Below are positions 8,687 to 58,312 of a DNA stretch of 64,000 bases, one piece after another. The notes under the pieces are model-generated. The model was not told the DNA's origin. It did no database searches and worked only from the letters and a program-made list of their open reading frames with translations. This DNA is from a virus (Duplodnaviria; Caudoviricetes). Every line of letters starts with the position of its first letter. The first letter of the stretch is position 1. The DNA is taken from the IMG/VR virus record IMGVR_UViG_3300036766_000439, positions 2,086 to 66,085 of that record; one strand, 5' to 3'. The position numbers and the translations under genes were made by a program.

Positions 8687-8748
8687 GCCTACCAATGTGC
8701 TACAGAGAACGGCCCCCGAGCGGGCCGTCTCTGACCACGGCGTTCGGC
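8687..8748 (+). repeat. attC site (short family)
   Basis: GCCTACC-AATGT-GCTACAGAG..CGGCCC-loop-GGGCCG..CTCTGACC-ACGGC-GTTCGGC; about 44-bp core identical to the reverse complement of 53533-53594. Confidence 0.8.
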
Positions 8749-9017
8749 CAGTGAGCGTTTAGGAGTTCCGCGAGGTGATCCCCGATCTGGTCTTGGATCG
8801 CAGCGGCCTTATCGGCTGGCAGGCCATGCGCGCCCGTGCCCGTTAGGTGGCCCCAGCCTCGGATGTCGAGCATACGCTCAGCGCCTTCGCCACTACCCCA
8901 GATTATACCATCCTCATGCCGAAACGGCGGAGTGAAGTATTTCGCAGCAAGGCCGAACCAGGCGCTAGAGCCAACGCTCGCAGCCTGTCCTTTTTCGGGT
9001 GATTGTTCTCCGCTCAT
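8700..9017 (-). CDS. Cassette hypothetical protein
   Basis: Starts MSGEQSPEK within the partial attC at 8952-9035 and ends inside attC 8687-8748; contains LDIRGWGHLTG. Confidence 0.65.
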   Translation of the reverse strand: MSGEQSPEKGQAASVGSSAWFGLAAKYFTPPFRHEDGIIWGSGEGAERMLDIRGWGHLTGTGAHGLPADKAAAIQDQIGDHLAELLNAHWPNAVVRDGPLGGRSL

Positions 9018-9019
9018 AG

Positions 9020-9250
9020 TTATAGGGTTTTCGGCGAGATGCGAAAAGTGACGCGCACCACTTTGCATTTTCCAATGTGCGGCTTGAGTGCCTTGGCCAT
9101 TTCTGCCGCGCGGTATCGGTGGCAGTAGAGCTGCGGAGTTGATTCGGAGCCTAGAGTTATTCGTCCGCTGTGATGCTGCACGGCCCACGCTGAACCACCC
9201 GTAGAGCCAACGCGGGCGCGGCTCCGTCCTTTTGCTTTAGAGGTCTTCAT
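9020..9250 (-). CDS. Cassette hypothetical protein
   Basis: ATG lies in the loop of attC 9189-9294. Confidence 0.55.
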   Translation of the reverse strand: MKTSKAKGRSRARVGSTGGSAWAVQHHSGRITLGSESTPQLYCHRYRAAEMAKALKPHIGKCKVVRVTFRISPKTL

Positions 9251-9294
9251 GTTTTCGATTGGCTAGAGCCGCGTGGCTCACTTTGACGTTCGCT
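9189..9294 (+). repeat. attC site
   Basis: GCTGAAC..GTAGAGCCAACGCGG...CCGCGTGGCTCAC..GTTCGCT imperfect palindrome with an extra base in the left arm. Confidence 0.75.
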
Positions 9295-46725: not shown

Positions 46726-47016
46726 ATGACCATCACGATCCAGATAGGTAATACCGACGACAAACTCACGCAGGCCGAATGGTCTGACTTCGTGGCTCTC
46801 GTCCACGACTATATCGAGCGATACGTCGAAGATCGCGCCGCAAGTGTGCATTTCTTCGGCGTGTCGGCCGACTACGAGCGGTGGCAAAATGCGGTGTGGG
46901 TCGTCTTGCTAATGGACGAACAGGAGCCGTCACTGCGCGCTGACATCAGCACCGCACGCCGGAAGTTCCGGCAGGACTCCGCCGCCTGGACAACCGGAGA
47001 AACCTCTTTCGTCTAA
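46726..47016 (+). CDS. Cassette hypothetical protein
   Basis: IGNTDDKLTQAEWS..WQNA; flanked by GTTAGAC/GTCTAAC with its stop inside the R box. Confidence 0.75.
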   Translation: MTITIQIGNTDDKLTQAEWSDFVALVHDYIERYVEDRAASVHFFGVSADYERWQNAVWVVLLMDEQEPSLRADISTARRKFRQDSAAWTTGETSFV

Positions 47017-47100
47017 CTCCAAATATGAGCCAGATGGCCACTCCACCTGATATGAAAACTACAAAAAAACGTGCGCGGAGATCATCTTTCTTTGCCGAAC
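47011..47100. pseudogene. Collapsed cassette remnant
   Basis: attC arm (GTCTAAC-TCCAAA-TATGAGCCA) followed by a copy of 52124-52159 joined to a copy of 52465-52495. Confidence 0.7.
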
Positions 47101-47111
47101 TATTTTCAACT

Positions 47112-47501
47112 ATGCCAATCCCAAAAACACTCAGTCCCCGTCCCGCTCGTTGGCTCTTGCGTCTGTGGGCTAAGGCGTGGCTGGACGGTGAGCCAGCGCC
47201 GCTCGCCTACCAACCGCAGCACCTCTGGAGCGATGGCACATTCGAGATGTGGGCCAACCTCGGCGAACCGACGAGCTCGAAGCGAGTCACGCGCGAGCGG
47301 CTCGCGATATATCTCGCACTCCACCCCGGCGAAAAAGTGCGCGTGCTGAAAATCGTGAGCGCCACCGAGGTGGTCGATGTCACGGATTTTCTGCCGAACG
47401 GCGAGGATGACGCACGGCCGCTCGGGGCCGTTGCGTCTGGCGCGTGGTTGGGAAAGCCCTCTGAAAATCTCACGAAAACAACGAACACCAAAGATGCATG
47501 A
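47112..47501 (+). CDS. Cassette hypothetical protein
   Basis: Reads through attC 47393-47453. Confidence 0.55.
   Translation: MPIPKTLSPRPARWLLRLWAKAWLDGEPAPLAYQPQHLWSDGTFEMWANLGEPTSSKRVTRERLAIYLALHPGEKVRVLKIVSATEVVDVTDFLPNGEDDARPLGAVASGAWLGKPSENLTKTTNTKDA
47393..47453 (-). repeat. attC (short family)
   Basis: Minus strand: TCCCAAC-CACGC-GCCAGACG-CAACGGCC-loop-GGCCGTG-CGTCATC-CTCGCC-GTTCGGC. Confidence 0.85.
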
Positions 47502-48303
47502 GCTGGCACTATTCGCAGGCGCTGGCGGCGGCATACTCGGGGGCAAACTCCTCGGGTGGACTACCGTCTGCGCCGTCGAATGGAATGAATACGCCCGTCG
47601 CGTGCTCCTCGCCCGACAAGACGACGGGAGCCTGCCCGCCTTCCCTATCTGGGACGACGTGCAAACCTTCGACGGACGACCGTGGCGCGGTCTGGTGGAT
47701 GTCGTGTCTGGCGGCTTCCCGTGCCAAGACATCAGCGTGGCCGGAACCGGCAAAGGGCTCGACGGAGAAAAAAGCGGGCTGTGGTCGGAAATGGCCCGAA
47801 TCATTGGCGAGGTGGGACCGCGGCACGTGCTCGTGGAGAACTCGCCAGCTCTCACTTTTCGGGGGGGCACCCGAGTGCTTGGAGACCTTGCCTCGATGGG
47901 GTATGATGCGCGATGGGGAATTGTGGGAGCAACCCACACCGGCGCTCCACACGAAAGGGAGCGCATGTGGATCGTGGCCGACTCTATCCGCGAACGAAGC
48001 GCGGAACGGCTGGCAGGACCGAAGCGGTGCGAAGAAAGGGAAGCAAGAGTCGCTGACGACGGTGCTACAGCGCCAGATGGGGCGGAAAACCGGCGAGCCG
48101 TGGCATGGTGGGCATCTGAACCCAGCGTGGGCCGAATGGTTCATGGGCTGGCCAATCGGATGGACCGACTGCGCTGCACCGGCAATGGACAGTCTCCGCC
48201 AGTGGTGCGACTCGCTTGGCGGCTTCTTTCAACGTCCGAAAACCAAGGAGGCCGCGTAGGGCTTCCCAACGCAGAGCTATCCGATGGCACGGCGAACATC
48301 TAA
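47494..48303 (+). CDS. C5 cytosine DNA methyltransferase (main chain)
   Basis: LFAGAGG (I), GFPCQD (IV), VENS (VI), HERERMW (VIII), GNGQ (X). Confidence 0.9.
   Translation: MHELALFAGAGGGILGGKLLGWTTVCAVEWNEYARRVLLARQDDGSLPAFPIWDDVQTFDGRPWRGLVDVVSGGFPCQDISVAGTGKGLDGEKSGLWSEMARIIGEVGPRHVLVENSPALTFRGGTRVLGDLASMGYDARWGIVGATHTGAPHERERMWIVADSIRERSAERLAGPKRCEEREARVADDGATAPDGAENRRAVAWWASEPSVGRMVHGLANRMDRLRCTGNGQSPPVVRLAWRLLSTSENQGGRVGLPNAELSDGTANI
47498..48259 (+). CDS. Overlapping +1-frame polypeptide carrying C5-MTase motif IX
   Basis: 253-aa ORF nested in the MTase, ending LNPAWAEWFMGWPIGWTD. Confidence 0.6.
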   Translation: MSWHYSQALAAAYSGANSSGGLPSAPSNGMNTPVACSSPDKTTGACPPSLSGTTCKPSTDDRGAVWWMSCLAASRAKTSAWPEPAKGSTEKKAGCGRKWPESLARWDRGTCSWRTRQLSLFGGAPECLETLPRWGMMRDGELWEQPTPALHTKGSACGSWPTLSANEARNGWQDRSGAKKGKQESLTTVLQRQMGRKTGEPWHGGHLNPAWAEWFMGWPIGWTDCAAPAMDSLRQWCDSLGGFFQRPKTKEAA

Positions 48304-48392
48304 GACTATGAGCAAGCCAAAAACTAAACGCAAACCCGCAACAGTCGCAACTGCCGAGGCCAAGTGCCATTCGGATCGGCGATTGGTTGGGT
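48264..48392 (-). repeat. attC
   Basis: TCCCAAC..GCTATCCGATGGCAC...GTGCCATTCGGATCGGC..GTTGGGT. Confidence 0.8.
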
Positions 48393-48703
48393 GCGTCGTT
48401 ACGAAACAGGGCGGCCCAATCCTCAACGAAGGATATGTGTGCGCCGCCGGTGACAATATCGCCGCCATCGAAATAGACATGAAATCAAAGCGGTGTGAGG
48501 TCATGGCCGAATCATCGACGGAAGATGGGGCGCCGGTGATATGGTTAGATGGAACAAACGCGCTGCATCTGAAAAAAGGCCACGAAAAAGAAGAAACAGA
48601 AGTAGCGTTTCCAGACTACAGGGGCTGGCGAATCTTCTCAGCCAATGTCTGCCGATACACCTTCCGCCTATGCTTCGTGCGGGATGAATCGCCTTACAAA
48701 TAA
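48308..48703 (+). CDS. Cassette hypothetical protein
   Basis: ATG in the attC loop (MSKPKTKRK). Confidence 0.65.
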   Translation: MSKPKTKRKPATVATAEAKCHSDRRLVGCVVTKQGGPILNEGYVCAAGDNIAAIEIDMKSKRCEVMAESSTEDGAPVIWLDGTNALHLKKGHEKEETEVAFPDYRGWRIFSANVCRYTFRLCFVRDESPYK

Positions 48704-48787
48704 GATGAGCCACGACCCCGCCACCCTCGACGTGAGCATGTTCCCAACGGCCCCAGCGGGGTCGTTGGCTCTGGCGGCTGGTTCGCC
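48691..48787 (-). repeat. attC (variant R' GTAAGGC)
   Basis: GATGAGCCACGACCCCGC...GCGGGGTCGTTGGCTCTGGC-GGCTG-GTTCGCC. Confidence 0.75.
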
Positions 48788-49067
48788 TCCGTTTCGCGTG
48801 CAGCTATCACGCCGGCGTGGTTGGCGAAAGCCGCCAAACTGCGTTGTGGTCGCGCGCCCGTCCCGATGGGGCAACCCGTGGCGCGTCGGAGAATACGGCT
48901 CCGCTGTCGAATGCGTGGCTCGATACGAGCGTGCGATCCGTGACGGACGATTTACAAACGAGGTGGACGACCTGCGCCAACTGCGTGGGAAAAACCTCGC
49001 GTGCTGGTGTTCTCTTGGGGAGCCGTGTCATGCGGACGTGCTTCTTTCTTTGGCGAACCGGGGATGA
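48705..49067 (+). CDS. DUF4326-like protein
   Basis: RPSRWGNPW...LRGKNLACWC...PCHADVL; start inside the attC (48705 or 48738). Confidence 0.8.
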   Translation: MSHDPATLDVSMFPTAPAGSLALAAGSPPFRVQLSRRRGWRKPPNCVVVARPSRWGNPWRVGEYGSAVECVARYERAIRDGRFTNEVDDLRQLRGKNLACWCSLGEPCHADVLLSLANRG

Positions 49068-49177
49068 GCTACACGGCCCGAAAACCAAATGACTCTATGA
49101 CCACTGAAAATATCCAACCACCCAATACGCTAGCCGAAGCCCCCGATGGCCGTGTTAGCTCTGGCCCCTCGTTAGGC
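49052..49177 (-). repeat. attC
   Basis: GGCGAAC..GATGAGCTACACGGCC...GGCCGTGTTAGCTCTGGC..GTTAGGC. Confidence 0.8.
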
Positions 49178-49555
49178 TCTTTGATCGAATCGCTCGCCTT
49201 TGAGTCCAAGCAGCCGGACAGAGGCTACACGGTCCGCGCAAGCTACCTCAATGAGCCCCGCAAGCAGGACGCGCTAATCGAAATCTTCAAAGACTCTAAA
49301 CCGCTGCGGGCCTTCTTCTTTCCGGCCTACAAGGTATGGAACATCGCCGCACACTTCCGCGACATCGTGGACGGTGAAATCGCCGGTGATAGCAGCGGCT
49401 ACGAAATGGCCGCGTGGGACGGAATCACCAACAGCATAATCCTGCTCCCGCGTGAGCAAGCCCAACGCCTCGGCCAGAGCCACGGCCGCTCGGGGCCGTT
49501 GGCTCTGGCCGAATGTTCGAAATGCCGGCCTCCGACTCTGGAAAATGCCTCCTGA
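49097..49555 (+). CDS. Cassette hypothetical protein
   Basis: ATG in the attC loop; FPAYKVWNIAAHF.DIV; reads through the next attC. Confidence 0.65.
   Translation: MTTENIQPPNTLAEAPDGRVSSGPSLGSLIESLAFESKQPDRGYTVRASYLNEPRKQDALIEIFKDSKPLRAFFFPAYKVWNIAAHFRDIVDGEIAGDSSGYEMAAWDGITNSIILLPREQAQRLGQSHGRSGPLALAECSKCRPPTLENAS
49460..49521 (-). repeat. attC (short family)
   Basis: GCCCAAC..GCCAGAGCCACGGCC-GCTCGG-GGCCGTTGGCTCTGGC..GTTCGAA. Confidence 0.85.
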
Positions 49556-49562
49556 AATATAA

Positions 49563-49615
49563 TGCACAATGTGCAAGAAAAAGCTTGCAATCGTCTGCAC
49601 AACGTGCATAGTCCT
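49563..49615 (+). promoter_or_regulatory. Cassette-internal promoter with two palindromic operators
   Basis: TGCACAATGTGCA (49563) and TGCACAACGTGCA (49596) flank TTGCAA (49585). Confidence 0.6.
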
Positions 49616-49657
49616 AAGTCATGGAGGCAATCAAGCCTCCCCGAAAAAAAATCAAAA

Positions 49658-49915
49658 ATGAACGCTCTGAAATCCACCTACCGCGCCATGAATGCCGTGA
49701 TGCCCTCCGAATGCTTTCTTGCCGACAATATGCCGGTCCCGACGCCCGCCGATAACCTGAAAAAGCACCTCGCGGGTGTAGCCGCTGAGACGCTCGACGA
49801 GATCATTGAGGCCACGGGCTACGCTGCAAACGGGGTCGCGGTCGGATACGATGCCCAGCGCGATGCGGACATCAACTCCGCCGCTCGCCGCGAACTCGCC
49901 CGCCGCCTCGCATGA
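49658..49915 (+). CDS. Hypothetical protein (first gene of two-gene cassette)
   Basis: A-rich leader; ATGA overlap with the HTH gene. Confidence 0.65.
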   Translation: MNALKSTYRAMNAVMPSECFLADNMPVPTPADNLKKHLAGVAAETLDEIIEATGYAANGVAVGYDAQRDADINSAARRELARRLA

Positions 49916-50157
49916 GCTTCGCGGACCAACTCAAAAAGGCCCGCGAAAAAGCGGGCCTCTCCATCGCGGACGCCGCCAAAGGGCGCGGCGTTTCGCCGCG
50001 CACCTGGGCGTATTGGGAAGCCGGCTTGCGGCTCCCGCCAGCCGAGCGGGACGCGATCACGCGGGAGCGTCTTCTTTCGTCGCTCACCAAAGAGCGTTCG
50101 CCCGGTCCGTCGAACACCAGAGATAATCCAGCTGACCGAGCCCCGCGCGATGAATAG
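49912..50157 (+). CDS. XRE HTH protein
   Basis: FADQLKKAREKAGLS..DAA...GVS.RT...WEAG. Confidence 0.85.
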   Translation: MSFADQLKKAREKAGLSIADAAKGRGVSPRTWAYWEAGLRLPPAERDAITRERLLSSLTKERSPGPSNTRDNPADRAPRDE

Positions 50158-50205
50158 CACGCAAAACGAACAATCGGTCAGCTTGGCTTTGGCGACTCGT
50201 TAGGC
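50109..50205 (-). repeat. attC
   Basis: GTCGAAC..CCAGCTGACCGA...TCGGTCAGCTTGG..GTTAGGC. Confidence 0.75.
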
Positions 50206-50234
50206 GTCCGAAAAAATCTCAACCAACACTCAAA

Positions 50235-50810
50235 ATGAACGCATCACTCGAAGGAATAACAGCCGCGAAGCAGATCGCTTCTTCTTATCCGCAAGCAAAC
50301 ATCAACGCCGAAGCCGTCGCGCAACTTATCGACGCGAACTTTGCGCGCGTCCGCGACGCTTTCAACTTCGCGAGAACGCGCGAGGAACTAACCGCGACCT
50401 ACGGCAAGCCGACGCGCACAAGCGCAATCCTCCGAATCGAAATCCGTATCTTGCCGCTGGTGGAAGACCGGCCGGTGCGGAGCACAAAACCTGAAACCTC
50501 ACGATCAGCCGGACAGGGTCTAGCGTCTGGTTCGCCTTTTCGGACGGCACCGGACAGGCAAAAAAAACAAATGCACGGCGCGACCGGAATCTTCCTGCGC
50601 GCCATCGGGCAAGATGGCCGCTGGGGCTCATACGACATGGCCGAACTCGATGCGGACAGCCTGACGGCATGGCTCAAGCTGGACGGCGGCGACAACCCGC
50701 TTGCCGAGAACTGCGTTCGCATCCTCCTCGGACACCCGCAGATTCAGGCGAACGACGCGCTATGCCAGCCCGCACCTGCGGCGCGGCATTCCACGGGCGT
50801 TACCGATTAA
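50235..50810 (+). CDS. Read-through fusion of two cassette ORFs
   Basis: Crosses the degenerate attC 50454-50535; the second part starts MHGATGIF at 50571. Confidence 0.5.
   Translation: MNASLEGITAAKQIASSYPQANINAEAVAQLIDANFARVRDAFNFARTREELTATYGKPTRTSAILRIEIRILPLVEDRPVRSTKPETSRSAGQGLASGSPFRTAPDRQKKQMHGATGIFLRAIGQDGRWGSYDMAELDADSLTAWLKLDGGDNPLAENCVRILLGHPQIQANDALCQPAPAARHSTGVTD
50454..50535 (-). repeat. Degenerate attC, near-identical to 51600-51682
   Basis: About 80-bp direct repeat ending GGGTCTAGCGTCTGGTTC; lacks the AAC box. Confidence 0.65.
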
Positions 50811-50853
50811 ACGGACGCGGCCAATAGGGATTGGCATCAGCAACTTGTTAAGC
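50747..50853 (-). repeat. attC
   Basis: GGCGAAC..GCTATGCCA...TTGGCATCAGC-AACTT-GTTAAGC. Confidence 0.7.
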
Positions 50854-50881
50854 GGCGAACAACGAAAACCAAAAAGAAAAT

Positions 50882-51073
50882 ATGAACGGAGAAACAAAAA
50901 CACTGAATCACGAGCAGTTCCTGCAAACGTATCTGCTCAATCGCGCACTCGCACACGTCGGCGGCCTCGATGCTCCCTACGCGGTGGAAACTGGTGAGGA
51001 AGGCTGGCAGAAAATCCAGCGCATCATCGCCAAAGACCCGAAGAACCAAAACGACAAATCTGGAACCCCCTAA
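50882..51073 (+). CDS. Cassette hypothetical protein
   Basis: Stop TAA inside the CCCTAAC box. Confidence 0.6.
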   Translation: MNGETKTLNHEQFLQTYLLNRALAHVGGLDAPYAVETGEEGWQKIQRIIAKDPKNQNDKSGTP

Positions 51074-51174
51074 CGTTCAAGATGAGCTGACGCGGCGAGC
51101 CGCCCTGAAAAATCCATGAACTCGAAAGCCAACCACGAAGCCCTGTCCGCGTCAGATCGGGCGGCGGGTTCGGC
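51068..51174 (-). repeat. attC, near-identical to 53085-53191
   Basis: GATGAGCTGACGCGG...CCGCGTCAGATCGGGC..GTTCGGC. Confidence 0.85.
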
Positions 51175-51367
51175 GCATAAAACTCCCGAGGGCGTGCTGG
51201 TGTGCGCTCGCTGCAATGCCGAAATGGAGTGGGAAGACTGCTCTGCCTGCGGCGGCGACGGATTCTTCGCCGGCCACGAGGAAGACCCGAACTGGTATCA
51301 TCCGGGCGAACTGGTGGCCTGCCGCCAGTGCGGCGGAACTGGCGGCGCCGGACATGGGAATTTATGA
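51116..51367 (+). CDS. Cassette Zn-finger (CxxCxGxG) protein
   Basis: CSACGGDG, CRQCGGTG; ATG in the attC loop; possibly truncated. Confidence 0.65.
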   Translation: MNSKANHEALSASDRAAGSAHKTPEGVLVCARCNAEMEWEDCSACGGDGFFAGHEEDPNWYHPGELVACRQCGGTGGAGHGNL

Positions 51368-51567
51368 AGCCTGAACTCGAAGCGAATAATACAAATGCGC
51401 CAAGCGGCGTTCTGCTCCGCCCGGTTGTTGGGTCGGCGAAACTGGAGCGTATAGACGATGCAATTCAGCGGCTGAGAAAAGGCATCGCGGAATGCAATGA
51501 GCGGATCTATGAAAAAGCCTTGGCCGACTTTGGAAATGAAACCAAGGACGGGAACGCCGGCCAATAA
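51364..51567 (+). CDS. Cassette hypothetical protein
   Basis: Starts in a half attC that ends GTTGGGT at 51433. Confidence 0.5.
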   Translation: MKPELEANNTNAPSGVLLRPVVGSAKLERIDDAIQRLRKGIAECNERIYEKALADFGNETKDGNAGQ

Positions 51568-51572
51568 ATTTC

Positions 51573-51836
51573 ATGCGCACAAACCAAAAACCCCCCGCCC
51601 CGCTGGTGGAAGACTGGCCGGTGCGGAGCGCAAAACCTGAAACCTCACGATCAGCCGGACAGGGTCTAGCGTCTGGTTCTGGTCTGTCTTTCTCGAAAAA
51701 TAATCCCGACAAGCGCACCGGCTACTGGTGCGGAGATTGTGGCCACGCGATGCGCTACAACGTGCCGCGGCTTGGGCCTGCTGGCGGTTTCGTCCACGCC
51801 GCCACTTCCAGCCTTCGGTGTGGAGCGCCAGCATAA
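51573..51836 (+). CDS. Cassette hypothetical protein
   Basis: N-terminus encoded by degenerate attC 51600-51682; CGDC..RYNVPRLG. Confidence 0.55.
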   Translation: MRTNQKPPAPLVEDWPVRSAKPETSRSAGQGLASGSGLSFSKNNPDKRTGYWCGDCGHAMRYNVPRLGPAGGFVHAATSSLRCGAPA

Positions 51837-51851
51837 TAACCGAAAAACAAA

Positions 51852-52133
51852 ATGAGCAAAGACCCACTCCATATCTACCTTGCGAAAGAGCGCGCCAATG
51901 GCGCATATAGCTTCTTGCTGCGCGTCCAACCGCCGCGCTACATCGGCGACACCGAAGTGCGCTTCGCGATCCACCCCGAGCTGCAATCGGGCGAGACGAA
52001 TGACTACTCGGTTAGCGAAGACCCGGAGCGGCGCGATGCAGACTTCCTCTACAACCTCGCGGCGGCCCCCGATCCGGATATCGAGAAATTTCTCGCGACG
52101 CTGCGCGATCTCCGGCTTCCACACTCCACCTGA
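51852..52133 (+). CDS. Hypothetical protein
   Basis: A-rich leader, 93 aa. Confidence 0.6.
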   Translation: MSKDPLHIYLAKERANGAYSFLLRVQPPRYIGDTEVRFAIHPELQSGETNDYSVSEDPERRDADFLYNLAAAPDPDIEKFLATLRDLRLPHST

Positions 52134-52134
52134 T

Positions 52135-52461
52135 ATGAAAACTACAAAAAACGTGCGCGTGGCCATCTTGGCTCTAGCGCTTTGCGAGGCCTGCTGGGCG
52201 TCCGAGAAAATCGTGACCGCCGGCGGAACCGATTTCTCGCACGTGCAGAAGATGCTGGACGACGGATGGACCGTGAAGGCATCCCATGCGGTCGTAGCCG
52301 AGACCACGGCCTACGGAAACCACCGGATCGAAAATCTGCTTCACGTCTTCACGCTCGCGTCGCCGCCGGCCGAAACCTTGGCCGCACTGGAACGAAAGCG
52401 CGCCGCCGAAGCGAAGGCCGTTTTTGAACGAAAGCGCGCCGAGTCGCGAGACCGGCGGTGA
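52135..52461 (+). CDS. Putative secreted protein
   Basis: MKTTKNVRVAILALALCEACWA signal-like N-terminus; LDDGWTVK. Confidence 0.6.
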   Translation: MKTTKNVRVAILALALCEACWASEKIVTAGGTDFSHVQKMLDDGWTVKASHAVVAETTAYGNHRIENLLHVFTLASPPAETLAALERKRAAEAKAVFERKRAESRDRR

Positions 52462-52488
52462 ATGCGTGCGCGGAGATCATCTTTCTTT

Positions 52489-52612
52489 GCCGAACGTCGC
52501 GTATCAGCCAGTCGGCGGGGAAGCCTCAACCAAATCGAAATCCAATGAACGAAAATCCTGAATCTTCAAATCGCGTGCCCGTAGCCGGCCTGGCTGGGGC
52601 GATTTGTTCGGC
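52489..52612 (-). repeat. attC
   Basis: GCCGAAC..TATCAGCCAGTCGGC...GCCGGCCTGGCTGGGGC..GTTCGGC. Confidence 0.75.
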
Positions 52613-52805
52613 TCTTATCTGTGCCGCACTGACAATCGGCGTGGCGCTTTGCGCTTTCGGAGTGATTCCGTGGCCAAGCGAAGCGTCCTTCAAATGGTGG
52701 TGCGCCGCCCATGTGATTTCTTTCACGGCTGGACTGCACGCTACACGGTCCTTGCCAAACGACCAAGCTCAAGCACGCCGGACTGGGGGCGTGGATTGCA
52801 AGTGA
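52545..52805 (+). CDS. Cassette membrane protein
   Basis: ATG in the attC loop; two hydrophobic segments. Confidence 0.6.
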   Translation: MNENPESSNRVPVAGLAGAICSALICAALTIGVALCAFGVIPWPSEASFKWWCAAHVISFTAGLHATRSLPNDQAQARRTGGVDCK

Positions 52806-52842
52806 GACGCTATCCGGCGTTGCTTGCAGCGCATGGTTAGGC
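52754..52842 (-). repeat. attC
   Basis: Minus strand: GCCTAAC-CATGC-GCTGCAAGCAACGCCGGA...TCCGGCGTGCTTGAGC-TTGGTC-GTTTGGC. Confidence 0.9.
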
Positions 52843-52856
52843 CACAACGAAAATCT

Positions 52857-53090
52857 ATGACTGACAAATTCACAGGCAAACCAATTGATAAACTATCTGA
52901 CCGCTTGCCGCATCCGAACGGCGGACGCTGCGAAACCTGCGGCACTGAAACAATAGACCACTGCCCGGTGTGCCGTGCGCCTCAATGCTGCCCAAGCTGC
53001 TGCGCCGATGCGATGACGGAAGGCACGCGCCAAGACAGCGAACAGGCTGCAAGGTCTGGCCTCGCACACACGCACGCCTATGTGGCCTAA
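52857..53090 (+). CDS. Cassette Cys-rich protein
   Basis: CETC..CPVC..CCPSCC; stop in GCCTAAC. Confidence 0.65.
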   Translation: MTDKFTGKPIDKLSDRLPHPNGGRCETCGTETIDHCPVCRAPQCCPSCCADAMTEGTRQDSEQAARSGLAHTHAYVA

Positions 53091-53191
53091 CGAAAAAGAT
53101 GAGCTGACGCGGCGAGCCGCCCTGAAAAATCCATGAACTCGAAAGCAAACCACGAAGCCCTGTCCGCGTCAGCTCGGGCGGCAGGTTCGGC
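53085..53191 (-). repeat. attC, near-identical to 51068-51174
   Basis: Three substitutions after the first spacer; encodes a 25-aa leader peptide (53133-53210). Confidence 0.85.
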
Positions 53192-53206
53192 AGGCTTGGA
53201 AAAAAC

Positions 53207-53581
53207 ATGAATACAAAAACAGCAAGAGAACTTCTCGGCATAGTCGAAAGCGAGTGCCCGGAAGTCGCCGAAGGAAATGCGCGTGAAATTATCCGCGGTG
53301 CATTCACGGAATCGCCATCGTGGGCTCTCCGGGTTCGGCGCGGCGTCCCGCTAATCGAGCACGCGGTGACCCCGGTCGGTGCCGATGATCCGTGGATAGA
53401 GGCCACCGTATCCGTGGAAAGATTCTTCCGGCATGAAATGTGGGAAATCTACGAAAAAGAACTCGATGACGCCGCAAAGGTGAGGCTCGCGAAAACCCTT
53501 GAGCGGGCTGCGAAACGCATCCGCGCGACTTTGCCCAACACCGTGGTCAGAGACGGCCCGCTCGGGGGCCGTTCTCTGTAG
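53207..53581 (+). CDS. Cassette hypothetical protein (duplicate of 7600 ORF core)
   Basis: See repeat 7632-7958. Confidence 0.7.
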   Translation: MNTKTARELLGIVESECPEVAEGNAREIIRGAFTESPSWALRVRRGVPLIEHAVTPVGADDPWIEATVSVERFFRHEMWEIYEKELDDAAKVRLAKTLERAAKRIRATLPNTVVRDGPLGGRSL

Positions 53582-53594
53582 CACTTGGTTGGGC
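53533..53594 (-). repeat. attC (short family)
   Basis: GCCCAAC..GGTCAGAGACGGCCC-loop-GGGCCGTTCTCTGTAGC..GTTGGGC. Confidence 0.85.
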
Positions 53595-53620
53595 CTCCGA
53601 TTTTCAACTCAAAAACCACA

Positions 53621-53884
53621 ATGAAATACCGAAAGAAACCTGCAGTAATCGAAGCCATGCTCTTCACGGCTGAAACGCTGGATGAATGCGTGGCCTTCTG
53701 CGGCGGTAACTACGAATACCGCAACGCATCGTGCCCCGCTCCGCACGGCGAAGTCATCGAAATCAAAACGCTCGAAGGCGTGATGATGGCAACGCCGGGC
53801 GACTGGATCATCAAGGGCGTGAAGGGCGAGTTCTACCCGTGCAAACCAGACATCTTCGCCGCCACCTACGAGGCCGTTCTTTGA
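53621..53884 (+). CDS. Conserved phage protein (PGDYG-like)
   Basis: MKYRKKP.VIEA...TLEG.M.A..GDWIIKGVKGEFYPCKPDIF..TYE. Confidence 0.85.
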   Translation: MKYRKKPAVIEAMLFTAETLDECVAFCGGNYEYRNASCPAPHGEVIEIKTLEGVMMATPGDWIIKGVKGEFYPCKPDIFAATYEAVL

Positions 53885-53888
53885 ATTG

Positions 53889-54003
53889 TCCCAACGCCAA
53901 GGTCAGCGAATCCGCCACATGAACGTCTCTGCCACATACGCTCTTAACCTGACGCCATCGACCGAGGACGGACGGGCGGATTCGCTGTGCCGCCTGGTTC
54001 AGC
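53889..54003 (-). repeat. attC
   Basis: TCCCAAC..GTCAGCGAATCCGCC...GGCGGATTCGCTGTGC..GTTCAGC. Confidence 0.8.
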
Positions 54004-54013
54004 TTTTCTCAAA

Positions 54014-54256
54014 ATGCACGCATACCTAAACAACCAGCGCAATCGCGAGCTGGAAAAGCTCACGCCCGCGATGTGGCGGATGCTTTTCGACATCCGCGAC
54101 CACGACGACCCAGGATATTCGCTGCGCGGAATGTCCGCGCACGGTGGCGCGAGTGGCACAAGCGCCGCGCTCCGCAAACGCGGACTGATGATCGGCGACA
54201 AACTCACCGCTCTCGGCTCCGCCGTGACCTACGTCGAATGGCGCGGCGCTTTCTAA
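54014..54256 (+). CDS. Cassette hypothetical protein (wHTH-like)
   Basis: ALRKRGL....LTALG. Confidence 0.6.
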   Translation: MHAYLNNQRNRELEKLTPAMWRMLFDIRDHDDPGYSLRGMSAHGGASGTSAALRKRGLMIGDKLTALGSAVTYVEWRGAF

Positions 54257-54361
54257 ACTGAACGACCAAGCTGAGCGACCGGAATGAGCGCGCTAGAGAC
54301 ATCCAATTGCAACGACGACGTGGCCGCGCTCAGTCCGGTTCGCTCCAGCGCGTGGTTAGCA
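54257..54361 (-). repeat. attC
   Basis: Minus strand: TGCTAAC-CACGC-GCTGGAGC-GAACCGGA...TCCGGTC-GCTCAGC-TTGGTC-GTTCAGT; textbook layout. Confidence 0.9.
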
Positions 54362-54392
54362 CGTCCGGCCTTTTGCGTCCGAAAAGAAATGC

Positions 54393-54420
54393 TTGCAATA
54401 ACCCAACGCTCGGTTATTGT
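54393..54420 (+). promoter_or_regulatory. Cassette-internal promoter overlapped by inverted repeat
   Basis: TTGCAA-16-TATTGT with CAATAACC-N8-GGTTATTG. Confidence 0.6.
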
Positions 54421-54428
54421 GGCGGCGC

Positions 54429-54740
54429 ATGAAAACAACCAAACTCGAAATGGGCCTGATGAAACTTCAGGCGGAAACGCCTGCCGAATCTCAGGCAATC
54501 TGCGGCATCATCGAAATGAACTCAAAGCTGATGCCTGCCGCAGTGGTCAACAACCACGGCTGTCGGCAGGTCGGGAAAAAATACCTGAACTGGTGTCTCA
54601 TCCCCGATGGTCACTTGGATGGAACGTGCCGCAAGAAACACCTGGAAGGCGACGGGTGCGACTGCCTGAAAGACGGCATCAAAGCGGGACTCAAGAAATG
54701 GGGCAAGCTGCCGTGGAACTACGTCTTCAAACGCGCATGA
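54429..54740 (+). CDS. Hypothetical protein (first gene of two-gene cassette)
   Basis: Cys/His-containing, 103 aa. Confidence 0.65.
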   Translation: MKTTKLEMGLMKLQAETPAESQAICGIIEMNSKLMPAAVVNNHGCRQVGKKYLNWCLIPDGHLDGTCRKKHLEGDGCDCLKDGIKAGLKKWGKLPWNYVFKRA

Positions 54741-54883
54741 AAAAGAAGAACTCAGCGGCGGTCGCACTCGGCAAAATGCGGAGTGCGGCGAAAGCTAAAG
54801 CAGCGAGAGAGAACGGGCAGCTTGGAGGCCGTCCGAAAACCAAGCGCGTGACCCGGCGTGCTAACGCAAAGCTCACGCCATGA
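54737..54883 (+). CDS. Small basic putative DNA-binding peptide
   Basis: AAVALGK..SAAKAKAARENGQLGGRPK motif. Confidence 0.65.
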   Translation: MKKKNSAAVALGKMRSAAKAKAARENGQLGGRPKTKRVTRRANAKLTP

Positions 54884-54959
54884 CTACCGCGCCCACACGC
54901 TCCGACCTCGCTAATGACTCCCACGCGGTAGTCATTGAGCGTGGAGCGTCTTGTTCGAC
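54859..54959 (-). repeat. attC
   Basis: TGCTAAC..GCTCACGC-CATGACTACCGCG...CGCGGTAGTCATTG-AGCGTGGAGC..GTTCGAC. Confidence 0.85.
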
Positions 54960-55212
54960 GTTGGCGCGGCACGAATGGCAAACCTGCGAAATCGAGGACT
55001 GCGACGAATGCCAATGGCTCGTCGATTGGGGGATGGTGATGGCGTGCGACCACTGCGGTAGCCCCGGAATGGTGGACTGCGACGGCTGGGTAATGCACGA
55101 ACCGTGGCTGTCTGATGGCGCGTGCGTCTGTATCGGTTGCAGCGCCCAAATCGAGGCGGCATTCAATTCGTCGAACGCTAAAGTTCAGACACGAGCGGAG
55201 GACAAACTATGA
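54880..55212 (+). CDS. Cassette Cys-rich protein
   Basis: ATG in the attC stem; several CxxC motifs. Confidence 0.65.
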   Translation: MTTAPTRSDLANDSHAVVIERGASCSTLARHEWQTCEIEDCDECQWLVDWGMVMACDHCGSPGMVDCDGWVMHEPWLSDGACVCIGCSAQIEAAFNSSNAKVQTRAEDKL

Positions 55213-55261
55213 AAAACAAAAAGAGCGCAGCCCGCTCGTTGTCTGTGGCGGCGGGTTCGGC
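55170..55261 (-). repeat. attC carrying SD and ATG
   Basis: GTCGAAC..CAGACACGAGCGG-AGGACAAACTATG...CCGCTCGTTGTCTG..GTTCGGC. Confidence 0.85.
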
Positions 55262-55457
55262 ATGGCTCCACTGGGGCTACTCAAAGGAGCTTGGGAAATA
55301 CTATGCAATAATCCAAGAAAGGGATCGCGCACACGCGCTAATAATCTCAGACGATAGTATCAATTGGCGACGCGCGAGCCCACGCGAAACGTGGCAGCCG
55401 TGTAGGATTGACGCCGGCAAAATACTTCCTATTCTTCCGCTTTCGCGGGCGATGTGA
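55209..55457 (+). CDS. Cassette hypothetical protein
   Basis: GGAGG-N6-ATG located inside the attC. Confidence 0.65.
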   Translation: MKNKKSAARSLSVAAGSAWLHWGYSKELGKYYAIIQERDRAHALIISDDSINWRRASPRETWQPCRIDAGKILPILPLSRAM

Positions 55458-55459
55458 AA

Positions 55460-55572
55460 GCCGAACGAAAAGCTCTCGCGCCCTGCCGCCGAATAAAAAT
55501 GGACTCACTCTTGCAAATGGACTTTGAACAACCCGCGAGCGCGGCAGGGTTGCGAGCAGCGCCGGGTTCGGC
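55460..55572 (-). repeat. attC
   Basis: GCCGAAC..GCTCTCGCGCCCTGCCGC...GCGGCAGGGTTGCGAGCAGC..GTTCGGC. Confidence 0.85.
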
Positions 55573-56056
55573 GTCAGTGCTGGACGTGTGCTGCGGGAGT
55601 CGGATGTTCTGGTTCGACCGCAAGAATCCGGCCGCAATCTTCTTGGACAAGCGCCGCGAGAGACACCTGGCCGCTGACTGCTCGGTGAAGAACGGCGAGC
55701 GGGAAATCGTGATAGACCCCGACATCGTTGCGGACTTCACAGACCTGCCGTTCGACGACAACACCTTCGCGCACGTCATCTTCGACCCGCCGCACATCCA
55801 GCGGAATGGTGATACGAGCTGGCTGCTCAAAAAGTATGGAGTCCTGCGCGGTGACTGGCGCGCGATGCTGCGCCTCGGCTTCGCTGAATGCTTCCGCGTC
55901 CTGAAACCCGAAGGCACGCTCATTTTCAAGTGGAACGAAATCGAAGTGCCGCTGCGCGAAATCCTCGCGCTGACTCCGGTGCAGCCGCTCTACGGACACC
56001 GCACCGGGAGGCAGGCGAAAACGCACTGGTGCGCGTTCCTGAAGCCGAACAAATAA
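55499..56056 (+). CDS. Amino (N6A/N4C) DNA methyltransferase-like
   Basis: VLDVCCGSRMFWFD, FDPPH, ECFRVLKP.GTLIFKW. Confidence 0.8.
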   Translation: MDSLLQMDFEQPASAAGLRAAPGSASVLDVCCGSRMFWFDRKNPAAIFLDKRRERHLAADCSVKNGEREIVIDPDIVADFTDLPFDDNTFAHVIFDPPHIQRNGDTSWLLKKYGVLRGDWRAMLRLGFAECFRVLKPEGTLIFKWNEIEVPLREILALTPVQPLYGHRTGRQAKTHWCAFLKPNK

Positions 56057-56140
56057 GATGACACAGATGCCCGCTCTCCCTGATGCTACTACCGCTGGAA
56101 ACGTCCCAGCGGGCATCTTGTGTCTGGCGCCTGGTTCTCC
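56044..56140 (-). repeat. attC
   Basis: GCCGAAC..GATGACACAGATGCCCGCT...AGCGGGCATCTTGTGTCTGGC..GTTCTCC. Confidence 0.85.
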
Positions 56141-56606
56141 ATCCGGGACGCACCAGAATCAACTGCCGCCGGCCGCCAACAAATTCCACGTCGGCAACGG
56201 ATCCGACGGCAAGCACTACTGGCTCACGCCGCCGGTGCTGATGGCCGAACTGCAATCCGAATTTGCGTTCGACTTCGACCCATGCCCCTGCCCGAAGCCG
56301 GAAGGCTTCGACGGACTGACGTGCGAATGGGGGCAATCGAACTACGTGAATCCCCCGTTTGGATCCATCATGCACGAGGGGAAAAAGAAAGGTCCGACTG
56401 CGTGGGCAAGGAAGGCGATCTTGGAGCACCGGAAGGGCAAAAAAGTGGTGCTCGTATATCCCATCGACAAATGGGTGCTGATGCTGCTCGCGGCTGGAGC
56501 GAAGGTGCGGAACCTCGGCGATGTCCGTTGGTGCGCGACCGAAGACGGCTCACAGGGCAAAGGCACCGGTCGGCACATCGCCGCCTTTATCTTGGAGAAC
56601 GAATAG
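56058..56606 (+). CDS. Phage Dam-like N6-adenine methyltransferase
   Basis: WLTP...FDFDPC, DGL..EW, YVNPPF. Confidence 0.8.
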   Translation: MTQMPALPDATTAGNVPAGILCLAPGSPSGTHQNQLPPAANKFHVGNGSDGKHYWLTPPVLMAELQSEFAFDFDPCPCPKPEGFDGLTCEWGQSNYVNPPFGSIMHEGKKKGPTAWARKAILEHRKGKKVVLVYPIDKWVLMLLAAGAKVRNLGDVRWCATEDGSQGKGTGRHIAAFILENE

Positions 56607-56684
56607 CTCTGATATGCCGCCTCAAGAGTCATCCCAAATTACGAGAGACGCGATGGCGGCATTATCAGCAGCGCATGGTTCGAG
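56594..56684 (-). repeat. attC
   Basis: GGAGAAC..GCTCTGATATGCCGCC...GGCGGCATTATCAGCAGC..GTTCGAG. Confidence 0.85.
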
Positions 56685-57048
56685 GACTTTCATGTATCGC
56701 ATCGCAGCAAAACACTCCACCGTCCTCGGCTACGGAGCAACCTCGCAGATGGGTAAAAAACTGTGGGCCTCGCTGGTGTGGGCTGGCGCGCGAAAGGATG
56801 GCGGCGCGCACATGATGAATCCAACCGGCGGCGAATACCTGCACGTCCGCGTGAAGCCAGTTGCGGACGGGTGCTGGTATCGCGTCCGATGCTCGCACTA
56901 CATCGGCAGCCAATGGCGCGGCGGCGTGGTGCAAAAGATCGCGCTGAAACAAAAAGGAGGCAGGTGGCACTGGCGCGTCACTGTGTCCTCGAACATTGGA
57001 CATGAGCCGCGTGCGGGCGAATCACCCTCGATGCCGAGCGCAGAATAA
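56614..57048 (+). CDS. Cassette hypothetical protein
   Basis: ATG in the attC stem; GGEYLHV...YRVRC. Confidence 0.6.
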   Translation: MPPQESSQITRDAMAALSAAHGSRTFMYRIAAKHSTVLGYGATSQMGKKLWASLVWAGARKDGGAHMMNPTGGEYLHVRVKPVADGCWYRVRCSHYIGSQWRGGVVQKIALKQKGGRWHWRVTVSSNIGHEPRAGESPSMPSAE

Positions 57049-57099
57049 ATAACCGAATCACCCCCAGCCCCGCACGTTGGCTCTGGGGACTGGTTAGGC
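56988..57099 (-). repeat. attC (first cassette next to attI)
   Basis: CTCGAAC..CATGAGCCGCGTGCGGG...CCCGCACGTTGGCTCTGG..GTTAGGC. Confidence 0.85.
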
Positions 57100-57108
57100 T
57101 CCGATTTT

Positions 57109-57321
57109 ATGACCCACGAACCAATCAAAATCCACGAATACGAAATCACGGAAGAGCAGATCGCGAACCTAGCGACGGAGTTCTTCGGCACCGTCGTCTA
57201 TCCGGCGGGCAACCACCAAACGGCTCATCTCTCTTTTACGGGCCAGCCGGACACATCCCGCGAAGAACTGCGGGCTCAATTCATGCGCGCTCTCGCGTGC
57301 TACAAACGGGCTTCTGCCTAA
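57109..57321 (+). CDS. Cassette hypothetical protein (attI-proximal)
   Basis: Stop TAA inside GCCTAAC of the attI junction. Confidence 0.7.
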   Translation: MTHEPIKIHEYEITEEQIANLATEFFGTVVYPAGNHQTAHLSFTGQPDTSREELRAQFMRALACYKRASA

Positions 57322-57350
57322 CAGGTGATTAACTAGAACAAAATCTATCT
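57316..57350 (-). other. attI-like primary integration site
   Basis: Minus strand ...GTTCTAGTTAATCACCT-GTTAGGC; non-palindromic, AT-rich, immediately 5' of intI; R box complementary to the first cassette's R''. Confidence 0.65.
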
Positions 57351-57355
57351 ATCAA

Positions 57356-58312
57356 ATGTCCGAAAAAGACGCCATTCAACGCTTTGTCGCTTTCATGCGG
57401 CTAAAACACTGGGCACTCACCACGGAGCGCAGTTACGTCGCGTGGGCGCACAAATACACGGCGTTCGTCAAGCGCGGGACTTGCGGCAGATCGTCCTCGG
57501 AAGAAAAGGTGCGGGCCTACCTCGAATCTATCGCACCGCATTGCGCGGCCAAGACGCAGAATCAATGCCTAAACGCTCTGGTCGTTTTCTACCGCGAGGG
57601 CATCGGCACTCCGCTAGGCAAGCTCGGTGCGTGGTCCTACGCCAAACGCCCGCAGCGCATCCCGGAATATGTCGATGTGGCGGACGCCAAGCGCATCCTC
57701 GCGCTGATTCCCGGCACACATGGACTGATGGCTTCACTGCTTTTTGGCAGCGGACTGCGACTCATGGAGTGCGTCAGGCTGCGCGTGAAAGACTGCGACG
57801 TGAAAAACCGCGCGCTGTTCATCCGGGGCGGCAAGGGGAACAAAGACCGCGTGGTGAATCTGCCGGTGTCGCTCGTCGCACCGCTCACCGCCCATCTTGA
57901 ACGAGTCAAGGCCCTATGGACCGGCGATCAAGCCAATGGGCACCCGCCGATTCAACTACCGACAGAAGGGCTTGACCGCAAGTTTCCCAACGGCGGAAAA
58001 CAGTGGCCGTGGTTCTGGGTCTTTCCTGGCAAGGGGCTTTCGCGCGACCCACGCAGCGGCATCTATCGCCGTCACCATACCCACGAGAATGGGCTGCAAA
58101 AGGCCGTCACCAAGGCTGCACAGGTGGCAGGTATCGGCAAGCGGGTTTCCTGTCACACGCTTCGCCACGGCTATATCACGGCGCTGGTTCAGGCGGGCGA
58201 AGATATTTCCAAAGTGCAGGCGTTGGCCGGTCACAAGCATATCGCCACCACCCAAATCTACATTCACATCGCCCCGAAGGCCGTCGCCTCGGTCAAAAGC
58301 CCGCTGGATTAA
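57356..58312 (+). CDS. intI: Integron integrase (IntI family tyrosine recombinase)
   Basis: TERSY..W N-domain; GSGLRLMEC.RLRVKD, GGKGNKDR, HTLRH, GH, TTQIY; integron-specific insert WPWFWVFP...SRDPRSG..RRHH. Confidence 0.93.
   Translation: MSEKDAIQRFVAFMRLKHWALTTERSYVAWAHKYTAFVKRGTCGRSSSEEKVRAYLESIAPHCAAKTQNQCLNALVVFYREGIGTPLGKLGAWSYAKRPQRIPEYVDVADAKRILALIPGTHGLMASLLFGSGLRLMECVRLRVKDCDVKNRALFIRGGKGNKDRVVNLPVSLVAPLTAHLERVKALWTGDQANGHPPIQLPTEGLDRKFPNGGKQWPWFWVFPGKGLSRDPRSGIYRRHHTHENGLQKAVTKAAQVAGIGKRVSCHTLRHGYITALVQAGEDISKVQALAGHKHIATTQIYIHIAPKAVASVKSPLD

Follow-up and report, generated by a model that had tools for sequence, protein, structure and literature searches.

The 64,000-nucleotide stretch of DNA analyzed here (the window; bases 2086 to 66085 of a 66,085-base contig, phage record IMGVR_UViG_3300036766_000439) carries an integron. 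Its integrase gene, intI, lies on the plus strand at 57356-58312, and to the left of it, at about 47.0-57.1 kb of the same strand, are about 23 imperfect hairpins that end in GTTNNNN and have the architecture of attC recombination sites. Open reading frames (ORFs) lie between the sites, and many of them can be read in frame from an ATG inside the attC that precedes them. This relationship between recombination site and start codon is the subject of the present analysis. The ORF at 57356-58312 encodes a tyrosine recombinase of the IntI family: its frame is intact, its product scores 312.4 bits against TIGR02249 (cut-off 265), Pfam families PF00589 and PF13495 also match, and it is 40.9% identical to IntI1 across 96% of its length.

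Gapped alignment of the two arms and constrained folding place one or two extra bases in each hairpin, always on the side of the 3′ arm, facing the AAC triplet. A search with the fixed layout R′(7)-spacer(5-6)-L′a(3)-L′b(6)-stem ... stem-T-6-N-3-5-R″(7) gave 18 to 22 of 22 possible pairs in 15 of the 23 sites. The elements expected of attC are present, namely R′ and R″ of the form RYYYAAC and GTTRRRY, an unpaired spacer, an L box, extrahelical bases and a variable loop; position 4 of R″ is frequently a C, off the RRR consensus. A plain ungapped palindrome scan of the window did not pick up these sites because of their bulges, and Rfam at gathering scores gave no matches over the window. A covariance model built from 10 window sites (R1) gave 20 matches in the window at E ≤ 0.01, of which 19 are on the plus strand (47011-57099; 10 are the model's own seeds) and one is on the minus strand (9189-9293). 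Weaker minus-strand matches were found at 8952-9035 and 8687-8748. The L′ box retains the word GATGAGCC despite poor GAT-GGC pairing (e.g., at 48704-48708, 49063-49067 and 56057-56061).

In the working model of integrons, the choice of attC strand places promoterless ORFs behind Pc, and attC is a 3′ appendage of the gene. As a control for strand we used a class 1 integron locus (L048), in which intI1 is on the plus strand to the right of its array. The plus strand of that locus shows attC(aadA2) as stem-T-CGGCTT-G-AAC-GAATT-GTTAGAC, a layout identical to that in the window, and aadA2 and dfrA12 are on its minus strand. It is the bottom strand of attC that carries the extrahelical bases opposite the AAC triplet (Nivina et al. 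2016). Given this rule and the layout shared with the control, the plus strand of the window is the attC bottom strand, and the geometry of intI and attC is canonical. The extrahelical bases lie opposite AAC on the recombined strand, and intI is placed as in class 1 integrons; it is also downstream of the sites, on the same strand, in six of the six other loci that have both. The orientation of the cassette genes departs from the canonical polarity, in which a top-strand ORF is followed by its attC and Pc, next to intI, drives expression. At 53 of 56 sites outside the window and at 11 of 12 sites within it (the samples are defined below), the genes are coded on the site (bottom) strand, and the ORFs point to intI. 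Because the ORFs are on the attC bottom strand, a cassette consists of an attC and then its ORF. A preliminary description of this DNA had proposed that the ORFs are inverted and that each gene's own attC lies at its 5′ end, and both the bulge position opposite AAC and the class 1 control agree with it.

The same arrangement could be read differently if the coding strand were the top strand: the cassettes would then have the ordinary polarity, and the in-site ATGs would lie in the site of the previous cassette. Stops within RYYYAAC (..TAAC) are typical of ordinary cassettes, 14 of 48 upstream stops in our sample fall inside R′, and the ORF ends inside the following site look canonical. However, the bulged bases are opposite the AAC triplet on the coding strand, and the position and strand of intI match the bottom-strand view of the class 1 control, in the window as in the six other loci. 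Moreover, three breaks in homology between cassettes fall at R′ and none at R″. We therefore regard ordinary polarity as extremely improbable.

A crossover at R′ (RYYYAA/C, with the slash marking the point of exchange) also makes the unit an attC followed by its ORF. In a related locus (L010), a 368-nucleotide (nt) stretch is duplicated at 100% identity with AA/C at both ends, and one copy is directly beside intI. In the window, a remnant at 47040-47100 matches the cassette at 52122-52495, and the match stops exactly at GCCGAAC. The ORFs at 53207-53581 and, on the minus strand, at 7958-7627 are 99% identical over 332 nt (blastn), and their identity stops at GCCCAAC, after which the C-terminal tails differ. 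Such indirect evidence suggests that the cassettes move as units bounded at the AA/C crossover.

One could instead suppose that the array is a decaying fossil, with immobile cassettes whose ORFs have drifted across the borders and with sites that have no selected role in translation. Degenerate or composite sites (47011-47170 and the site before 7958) and the remnant of a deleted cassette fit such decay, as do the 25 of 48 ORF 3′ ends that cross R′. Against this, the fully identical L010 duplicate, with its exact AA/C borders and one copy at attI, points to integrase activity in the recent past, intI has an intact frame, and the same pattern is seen in 25 contigs and with 66 unrelated cargo proteins. 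A fossil array is, in our view, very unlikely.

Ten in-site start positions had been listed in the preliminary description (48308, 48705/48738, 49097, 51116, 52545, 54880, 55209, 55499, 56058 and 56614), and all are inside their sites, in frame and open downstream. The accompanying statement that they begin the longest ATG frame does not hold for four of them, as longer ATG frames begin at 48284, 48645, 49064 and 56521. All sites in the array are on the plus strand. The attC at 48264-48392 (R1, 25.7 bits) has a stem ATG at 48284 and a loop ATG at 48308, and translation through its R″ reads ..RRLVG, with a conserved protein core from 48393. The site at 48691-48787 has an L′-box ATG (48705) and a loop ATG (48738) and encodes the tag LALAAGS ahead of a DUF4326 ORF; a GTG at 48798, 10 nt past R″, is a rival start for this gene. 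In the next site (49052-49177), the L′-box ATG 49064 overlaps the DUF4326 stop (ATGA), a loop ATG follows at 49097, and R″ is GTTAGGC, which is read in another frame (SLG). The attC at 51066-51174 (R1, 35.3 bits) has a loop ATG (51116) fused in frame to an 83-amino-acid (aa) ORF through the tag DRAAGS.

Farther right, the site at 55170-55261 has a loop ATG at 55209, which overlaps the upstream stop (ATGA), and the tag LSVAAGS, and there is no further ATG until 55452. A Shine-Dalgarno sequence had been reported inside this site, and GGAGG is indeed present at 55197-55201, 7 nt before the ATG. The attC at 55460-55572 has loop ATGs at 55499 and 55517 and the tag LRAAPGS, followed by an S-adenosylmethionine (SAM)-dependent DNA methyltransferase, for which a GTG at 55577, 5 nt past R″, is a rival start. 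The site at 56044-56140 combines an L′-box ATG at 56058, 1 nt past the upstream TAA, and an ATG at 56067 with the tag LCLAPGS and a Dam-like methyltransferase. The attC at 56594-56684 (R1, 16.4 bits) has a stem ATG (56614), a loop ATG (56653) and the tag LSAAHGS, with a rival ATG at 56692, 7 nt past R″. The six tags of the LxxxxGS type had been given correctly, and they are the xGT-TCG reading of L″ and R″. At the weak, atypical site 54860-54959 (R1, 11.1 bits, E = 1.3), ATG 54880 overlaps the upstream stop (ATGA).

Because the window is too small for a test of reading frames, relatives were sought. A 3′-arm motif matched at 44 viral-contig loci, and R1, applied to 47 loci, gave 108 sites (E ≤ 0.01) in 25 viral contigs, 21 of which have at least 2 sites. 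A scan of viral contigs by IntI yielded distant relatives only, at three loci. A codon log-odds (LOD) table was trained on the long ORFs of the window's contig outside the array, and the gene frame at each site was chosen from codons 15-75 past R″. The 108 sites and 18 window sites (126 in total) were reduced to 119 by removal of near-duplicates. A site was kept if it had 230 nt or more of downstream sequence, a margin of 10 bits or more and no stop, which left 68 sites (56 non-window and 12 window) and excluded the other 51.

Outside the window, an in-site ATG that is open to the end of R″ occurs in the gene frame at 33 of 56 sites versus 11 of 112 in the other two frames (Fisher's exact test, P = 3e−11). 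The cargo proteins of the 68 sites form 66 clusters, and when one site per cluster is used, the non-window counts are 33/55 versus 11/110. When the gene-frame labels were shuffled among sites, 15.1 such cases were expected and the maximum in 20,000 shuffles was 27, so that the observed 33 was never reached. The preliminary description had named as a refuting outcome that loop ATGs are no more often in frame than chance; we found them in 29 of 55 gene frames versus 8 of 110 other frames (non-window sites, P = 1.5e−10). L′-box ATGs are in frame at 14 of 24 sites (P = 0.01), and sites with an in-frame ATG are longer than the others (median 113 versus 89 nt, P = 2e−4). The association is real, and it is general for this family of phage-integron attC sites.

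By the position of their possible ATG starts, the non-window sites divide into 24 with an in-site ATG only, 13 with an ATG within 45 nt past the site only, 9 with both and 10 with neither. For the 27 in-site-only cassettes (these 24 and 3 from the window), the first 15 codons past the site have a summed LOD of +92.6 in the gene frame, versus −125.6 and −191.9 in the other frames, and in 17 of the 27 the 50 nt past the site contain no ATG, GTG or TTG. The frame in which the sites are read is also associated with R″. Where R″ is open in frame a (xGT-Txx), 24 of 42 non-window genes use that frame (P = 0.0013); where R″ has TAG or TAA, 8 of 28 do. The association between R″ and frame is significant for all sites (Fisher's exact test, P = 0.003) and for the non-window sites (P = 0.027).

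Homologs of individual cassette proteins show where the conserved sequence begins relative to the site. In 15 of 18 database homologs of the 48308 cassette protein, the core CVVTKQGGPILNEGYV.. (CVVTKQGG..) starts at the codon after R″, preceded by leaders that differ from one another but share the ending ..V[RG], which is R″ read as GTT-CGN. In the window cassette, no start codon follows R″ until GTG 48437, which falls within the conserved core. The remaining three homologs are otherwise unrelated proteins with the same 28-aa attC-encoded leader. For the 56058 Dam-like methyltransferase, the PHROG match starts at residue 49 (nt ~56202), and the first post-R″ start codon (GTG 56235) comes 33 nt later.

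A further instance is a minus-strand paralog of ORF 53207-53581 at 7600-8109 (the pair with 99% identity over 332 nt described above), whose site is not detected by R1. The two proteins are 92% identical, and the array copy has its own ATG 16 nt past R″. The paralog lacks such an ATG. Followed backward, its frame meets no stop in a degenerate attC 3′ arm (..RALALGTCLG..) and reaches ATG 8046 or 8109, which gives it an attC-derived N-terminal extension of 28-49 aa instead.

The 55499 methyltransferase is less clear-cut. We classified its best 120 homologs by leader: 30 have a leader of 10 aa or less and start 4-9 residues before motif I, 29 have a long leader with a GSx or xSA ending immediately ahead of the core, in 46 the long leader is without the tag, 14 start at an internal MFWFD and miss motif I, and 1 is of another kind. 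For this protein and for DUF4326, it had been stated that the conserved domain begins right after R″ with no in-frame ATG before it. The family matches do start at the end of R″, with no in-frame ATG between; nevertheless, the in-frame GTGs 55577 and 48798 are available. The broader proposal that the site supplies the start codon draws on the frame linkage and the homology limits, while these two genes, with a GTG after R″, are weak examples of it.

These rival starts bear directly on the objection that the in-site ATGs are an artefact of choosing the longest ORF, the true ATG, GTG or TTG starts being past R″ and the frames being open backward by chance in DNA of 59% G+C. Several frames are indeed open around many sites, GTG 48798 and GTG 55577 are right before conserved domains, the 30 short-leader methyltransferase homologs are compatible with such starts, and the window taken by itself gives P = 0.12. 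But chance predicts equal rates in the three frames, and the observed counts are 33/56 versus 11/112, a value never attained by shuffling. In addition, the 17 of 27 in-site-only cassettes that lack a start codon within 50 nt past R″ already have a positive coding signal there, and in the 48308 and 56058 cassettes homology begins before any post-R″ start. Such an artefact is quite unlikely to explain the pattern.

Several observations nevertheless weigh against initiation within the sites. The window-only frame test is not significant (6/12 versus 5/24, P = 0.12), and the association between R″ and frame has P = 0.054 at a stricter margin. Among the 33 non-window in-site cases, 9 also have an ATG within 45 nt downstream, and 14 are open well upstream of the site, so that some of the latter could be longer ORFs. 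Rival starts lie shortly past R″ in five window cassettes (GTG 48798, GTG 55577, ATG 56692, ATG 47494 and TTG 49181). Four sites are weak or atypical for R1 (54860-54959, 50747-50853 and the twins 50454-50536 and 51600-51682), and sites 51066 and 49052, as RNA, fold no better than shuffled sequences. The left edge of the 53207/7958 paralog pair is at neither R′ nor R″. Finally, the N-termini of database proteins are choices of gene callers that favor long ORFs, and they show open ATG-headed frames rather than their use.

Taking these points into account, we consider it probable that attC acts as the cassette's own translation start region in this phage integron with bottom-strand ORFs, a reading based on the geometry, the frame linkage, the open frames and the homology limits shown here. 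That attC supplies the start codon is backed by the comparative statistics and by three specific cases, and is well supported by the sequences, if unproven. We infer that ribosomes initiate inside attC, and that upstream ORFs open the stem and couple neighboring cassettes.

The contexts of the loop ATGs are start-like, as in ..aaccaaaaATGaac.., ..ccaaccaaaaATGaac.. and ..cggaggacaaataATGgat... GGAGG precedes 0 of 24 long phage genes, and the leaders of these genes, judged by eye, are A/C-rich, like the loops before the in-site ATGs. The preliminary description had also suggested that the mRNA hairpin might hold back translation until ribosomes arriving from upstream melt it. The RNA around the loop ATGs is predicted to be mostly unpaired, so that the stem would present the start instead of hiding it.

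The positions of upstream stops were tabulated for 48 sites: 9 are before the site, 14 inside R′, 6 at offset 7-20 and 19 deeper. Upstream ORFs consequently end inside the next attC in 39 of 48 cases. In 7 of the 10 cassettes listed in the preliminary description, the upstream stop is 0-7 nt from an in-site ATG or overlaps it. Over 30 sites, the distances from upstream stop to in-site ATG range from −63 to +95, and 18 of the 30 are within −20 to +8, a proportion obtained without a control. Near-identical attC sites also precede different genes (50454-50533 and 51600-51679, 97.5% identity; 51069-51174 and 53086-53191, 94%). The stop positions and the second of these pairs, with a fusion at one site and a short ORF ending at the main start at the other, fit translational coupling of neighboring cassettes.

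Where the L′ box has an ATG, it is within ATGA at 27 of 29 sites, with ATG in one frame and TGA in the next. We considered an L′-box junction of the form stop-ATG-stop as a universal feature and rejected it, as a stop directly precedes ATGA in only about 8-9 sites.

A short ORF within a recombination site is known from class 1 integrons, in which attI1 holds ORF-11, ORF-18 and ORF-17, including an initiation region and a reading frame that crosses the crossover point (PMC8876359). By analogy, the in-site ATGs described here could chiefly open short leader ORFs that load ribosomes, the fusions being tolerated by-products and the mature proteins starting elsewhere. The attI1 precedent favors this explanation, and so do the conserved ATGA of the L′ box and the upstream stops that lie next to or overlap in-site ATGs. 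The best example is the attC at 53085-53191, in which loop ATG 53133 opens a 25-codon ORF whose TGA overlaps the main-gene ATG 53207 (ATGA); its twin at 51066 is a fusion. This is the one clear case in the window of a candidate ORF-11-type signal (53133-53209), with two or three more in other loci. Of 30 sites that have an ATG a short way downstream, only two or three have a loop ORF that clearly ends, by stop-start overlap and out of frame, at a main start. The majority of in-site ATGs are in fusion with the gene, initiation at an in-frame ATG without a stop necessarily yields a fused protein, and the statistical excess is of in-frame and not of out-of-frame ATGs. Leader ORFs are therefore an unlikely main function of the in-site ATGs.

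The attC start regions that we favor resemble the attI1 ORFs in that a recombination site contains a ribosome-binding region and an ATG, and the core is read in the same register, in which GT-TAG-GC gives a stop in attI1 (PMC8876359). The attI1 ORFs aid cassettes without their own initiation region, by coupling or by fusion. However, the attI1 signal is in attI, is owned by the platform and serves the first cassette only, whereas the signal in the window is in attC, is owned by the cassette, with which it travels, and is present in about half of the cassettes, usually as a fusion. Whereas the function of ORF-11 was demonstrated by experiment (PMC8876359), the role of the window sites is predicted from sequence. 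It is also reported that an attC on mRNA influences how the gene behind it is translated and can contain a short ORF, in cases called anecdotal (PMC11511950). In those cases, the mRNA corresponds to the top strand and the attC is that of the upstream cassette, while in the window the mRNA corresponds to the bottom strand, the attC belongs to the cassette itself, and the ORF runs on into the cargo.

The remaining sites of the array are more varied. At its left end is a composite attC-like site (47011-47170; R1, 36 bits; alignments), in which the L′-box ATG 47025 opens ORF 47025-47501; the internal remnant of cassette 52122-52495 ends there in GCCGAAC (47094-47100). The attC at 47393-47453 (layout search and R1) has an L′-box ATG (47407) in frame with a C5 cytosine DNA methylase ORF (47494-48303; PF00145, E = 2.7e−27), but ATG 47494 is the likelier start of the methylase because the Pfam domain begins at residue 4 counted from it. 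The methylase stop (48301-48303) falls within the loop of the attC that follows, 4 nt ahead of ATG 48308. A short attC at 49460-49521 (R1, 20.4 bits) is read through by the ORF begun in the preceding attC. The sites at 50109-50205 (R″ GTTAGGC), 53533-53594 and 56988-57099 are followed by genes that start downstream of them, at ATG 50235, ATG 53621 and ATG 57109, respectively. The last of these is also the last attC before attI (R1, 69.4 bits), and the upstream ORF stops in its loop (TAA 57046-57048).

Coding by the site extends to its neighbor on the other side. The 5′ arm and loop of attC 53533-53594 encode the tail and stop (..PNTVVRDGPLGGRSL, stop) of the upstream ORF 53207-53581. This attC and the minus-strand attC 8687-8748 are 93% identical, and they give the same tail, PN[TA]VVRDGPLGGRSL and stop, to two otherwise unrelated upstream ORFs. 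The latter site belongs to a second, small attC cluster on the minus strand at 8687-9293 with no integrase beside it (9189-9293, 8952-9035 and 8687-8748; R1, 30.4, 16.9 and 16.1 bits). The cluster is found downstream from a helicase gene, the ORFs share the strand of the sites, and frames from its in-site ATGs 9250 and 9014 run through R″.

In two cassettes, a segment resembling a signal peptide or membrane segment takes its hydrophobic core from the 3′ arm of attC (ILALALC in 52135-52200 and VAGLAGAICSALICAAL in 52575-52660). The first has a weak attC-like site (52100-52190; R1, 21.8 bits) with an in-site ATG at 52135, and its 3′ arm encodes ILALALC of a signal-peptide-like N-terminus. In the second (attC 52489-52612, layout search and R1; loop ATG 52545), a stretch of a hydrophobic segment (..VAGLAGAICSAL..) comes from the 3′ arm. 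Tags of the LALA type may sometimes be put to use.

The cargo includes three methyltransferases, of the C5 (47494-48303), SAM-dependent class I (55499-56056) and Dam-like (56058-56606) types, as well as DUF4326 (48738-49067) and helix-turn-helix (49912-50157) proteins, and looks like phage accessory or anti-restriction functions. Of 10 cassette proteins, 7 had no PHROGs family, and of 10 others, 8 had none in Pfam. Among the window proteins, the PHROG match to helicase is strong, and those to major head and portal proteins are weak. The terminal ~66 bases of the contig (window 63935-64000) repeat its first 66 bases with 1 mismatch, a redundancy that suggests a circular or circularly permuted genome.

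By its sequence and by analogy with the GCCGAA/C beside intI in L010, the GCCTAAC at 57316-57322 (plus strand) is the probable junction of the first cassette with attI (GCCTAA/C). The TAA of ORF 57109-57321 is inside this junction, and the intI ATG is 33 nt farther on. In both loci, intI begins about 33-40 nt past the attI-side AA/C junction and is oriented like the cassettes (window, 57322-57356; L010, 2117-2160, minus strand). With the intI ATG so close to the junction and co-oriented with the cassettes, read-through transcription from the array is possible and room for an own promoter is small, and intI may be expressed in this way. The nearest IntI relatives among genome contigs are from Verrucomicrobia metagenome-assembled genomes (L049, L050 and L052; 42-48% identity), which hints at a Verrucomicrobia-like host group. 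Model R1 found no sites in four of those Verrucomicrobia IntI loci.

Phage records with intI, attC sites and cassettes have been reported (Qi et al. 2023, PMC9892861). Two of those phages are among our IntI matches, and the IntI of the window family is only 36-41% identical to theirs; in the parts of that study that we covered, we found nothing on how ORFs are oriented relative to the attC strand, nor on start codons within attC. In the inverted integron-integrase group (Treponema type), intI is transcribed toward attI, in the attC orientation (PMC3607928, PMC4889954). As in that group, intI and the cassette genes of the window are co-directed. Unlike in that group, the window intI is behind the array, is transcribed away from it, is on the strand that shows the attC bottom strand and is canonical with respect to attC, and it is the ORFs that are turned. 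In the literature covered, mostly open-access and without supplements, no study was found that describes start codons or N-terminal tags encoded by attC, or an array whose ORFs are all on the bottom strand.

We propose that the mobile unit would be C-[attC]-[ORF]-RYYYAA and that each mRNA would have the cassette's attC hairpin at its head. The variable loop (variable terminal structure, VTS), which is the sole part of the site free from recombination constraints, may have become a translation-initiation region in about half of the cassettes. Such a VTS is A/C-rich and largely unpaired, sometimes with GGAGG, and then has an ATG, with the conserved ATGA of the L′ box as an alternative. Translation through L″, the spacer and R″ would tag unrelated proteins with ..LALAxGS.. 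(xGT-TCG) or ..VGSGDL[FL]G.., and R″ tends toward GTTCGGC over GTTAGGC where the gene frame would otherwise meet TAG.

More tentatively, as a proposal that we hold possible and slightly short of probable, these phages may represent a phage-integron lineage, probably with Verrucomicrobia-like hosts, that has "head-first" cassettes. A ~100-nt attC would then combine the roles of recombination site, portable ribosome entry site and coding sequence, the last for both its own gene's N-terminal peptide and the upstream gene's C-terminal tail and stop, and the cassettes would be translatable and coupled in any order and expressed toward intI. The family, found in at least 25 viral contigs, keeps the recombination geometry of integrons yet turns the genes, and the free loop appears to act as their own start signal. 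If true, this would account for the expression of cassettes without Pc and in any order, and one sequence would be used in three ways, as a DNA structure, an mRNA signal and a peptide. Gene callers and cassette catalogues would have mis-set many N-termini, for example in the 14 of 120 methyltransferase homologs without motif I. Such a site would also be a portable initiation module for hosts without Shine-Dalgarno pairing, and the effect of transcribing and translating the recombinogenic strand on cassette excision would become directly testable.

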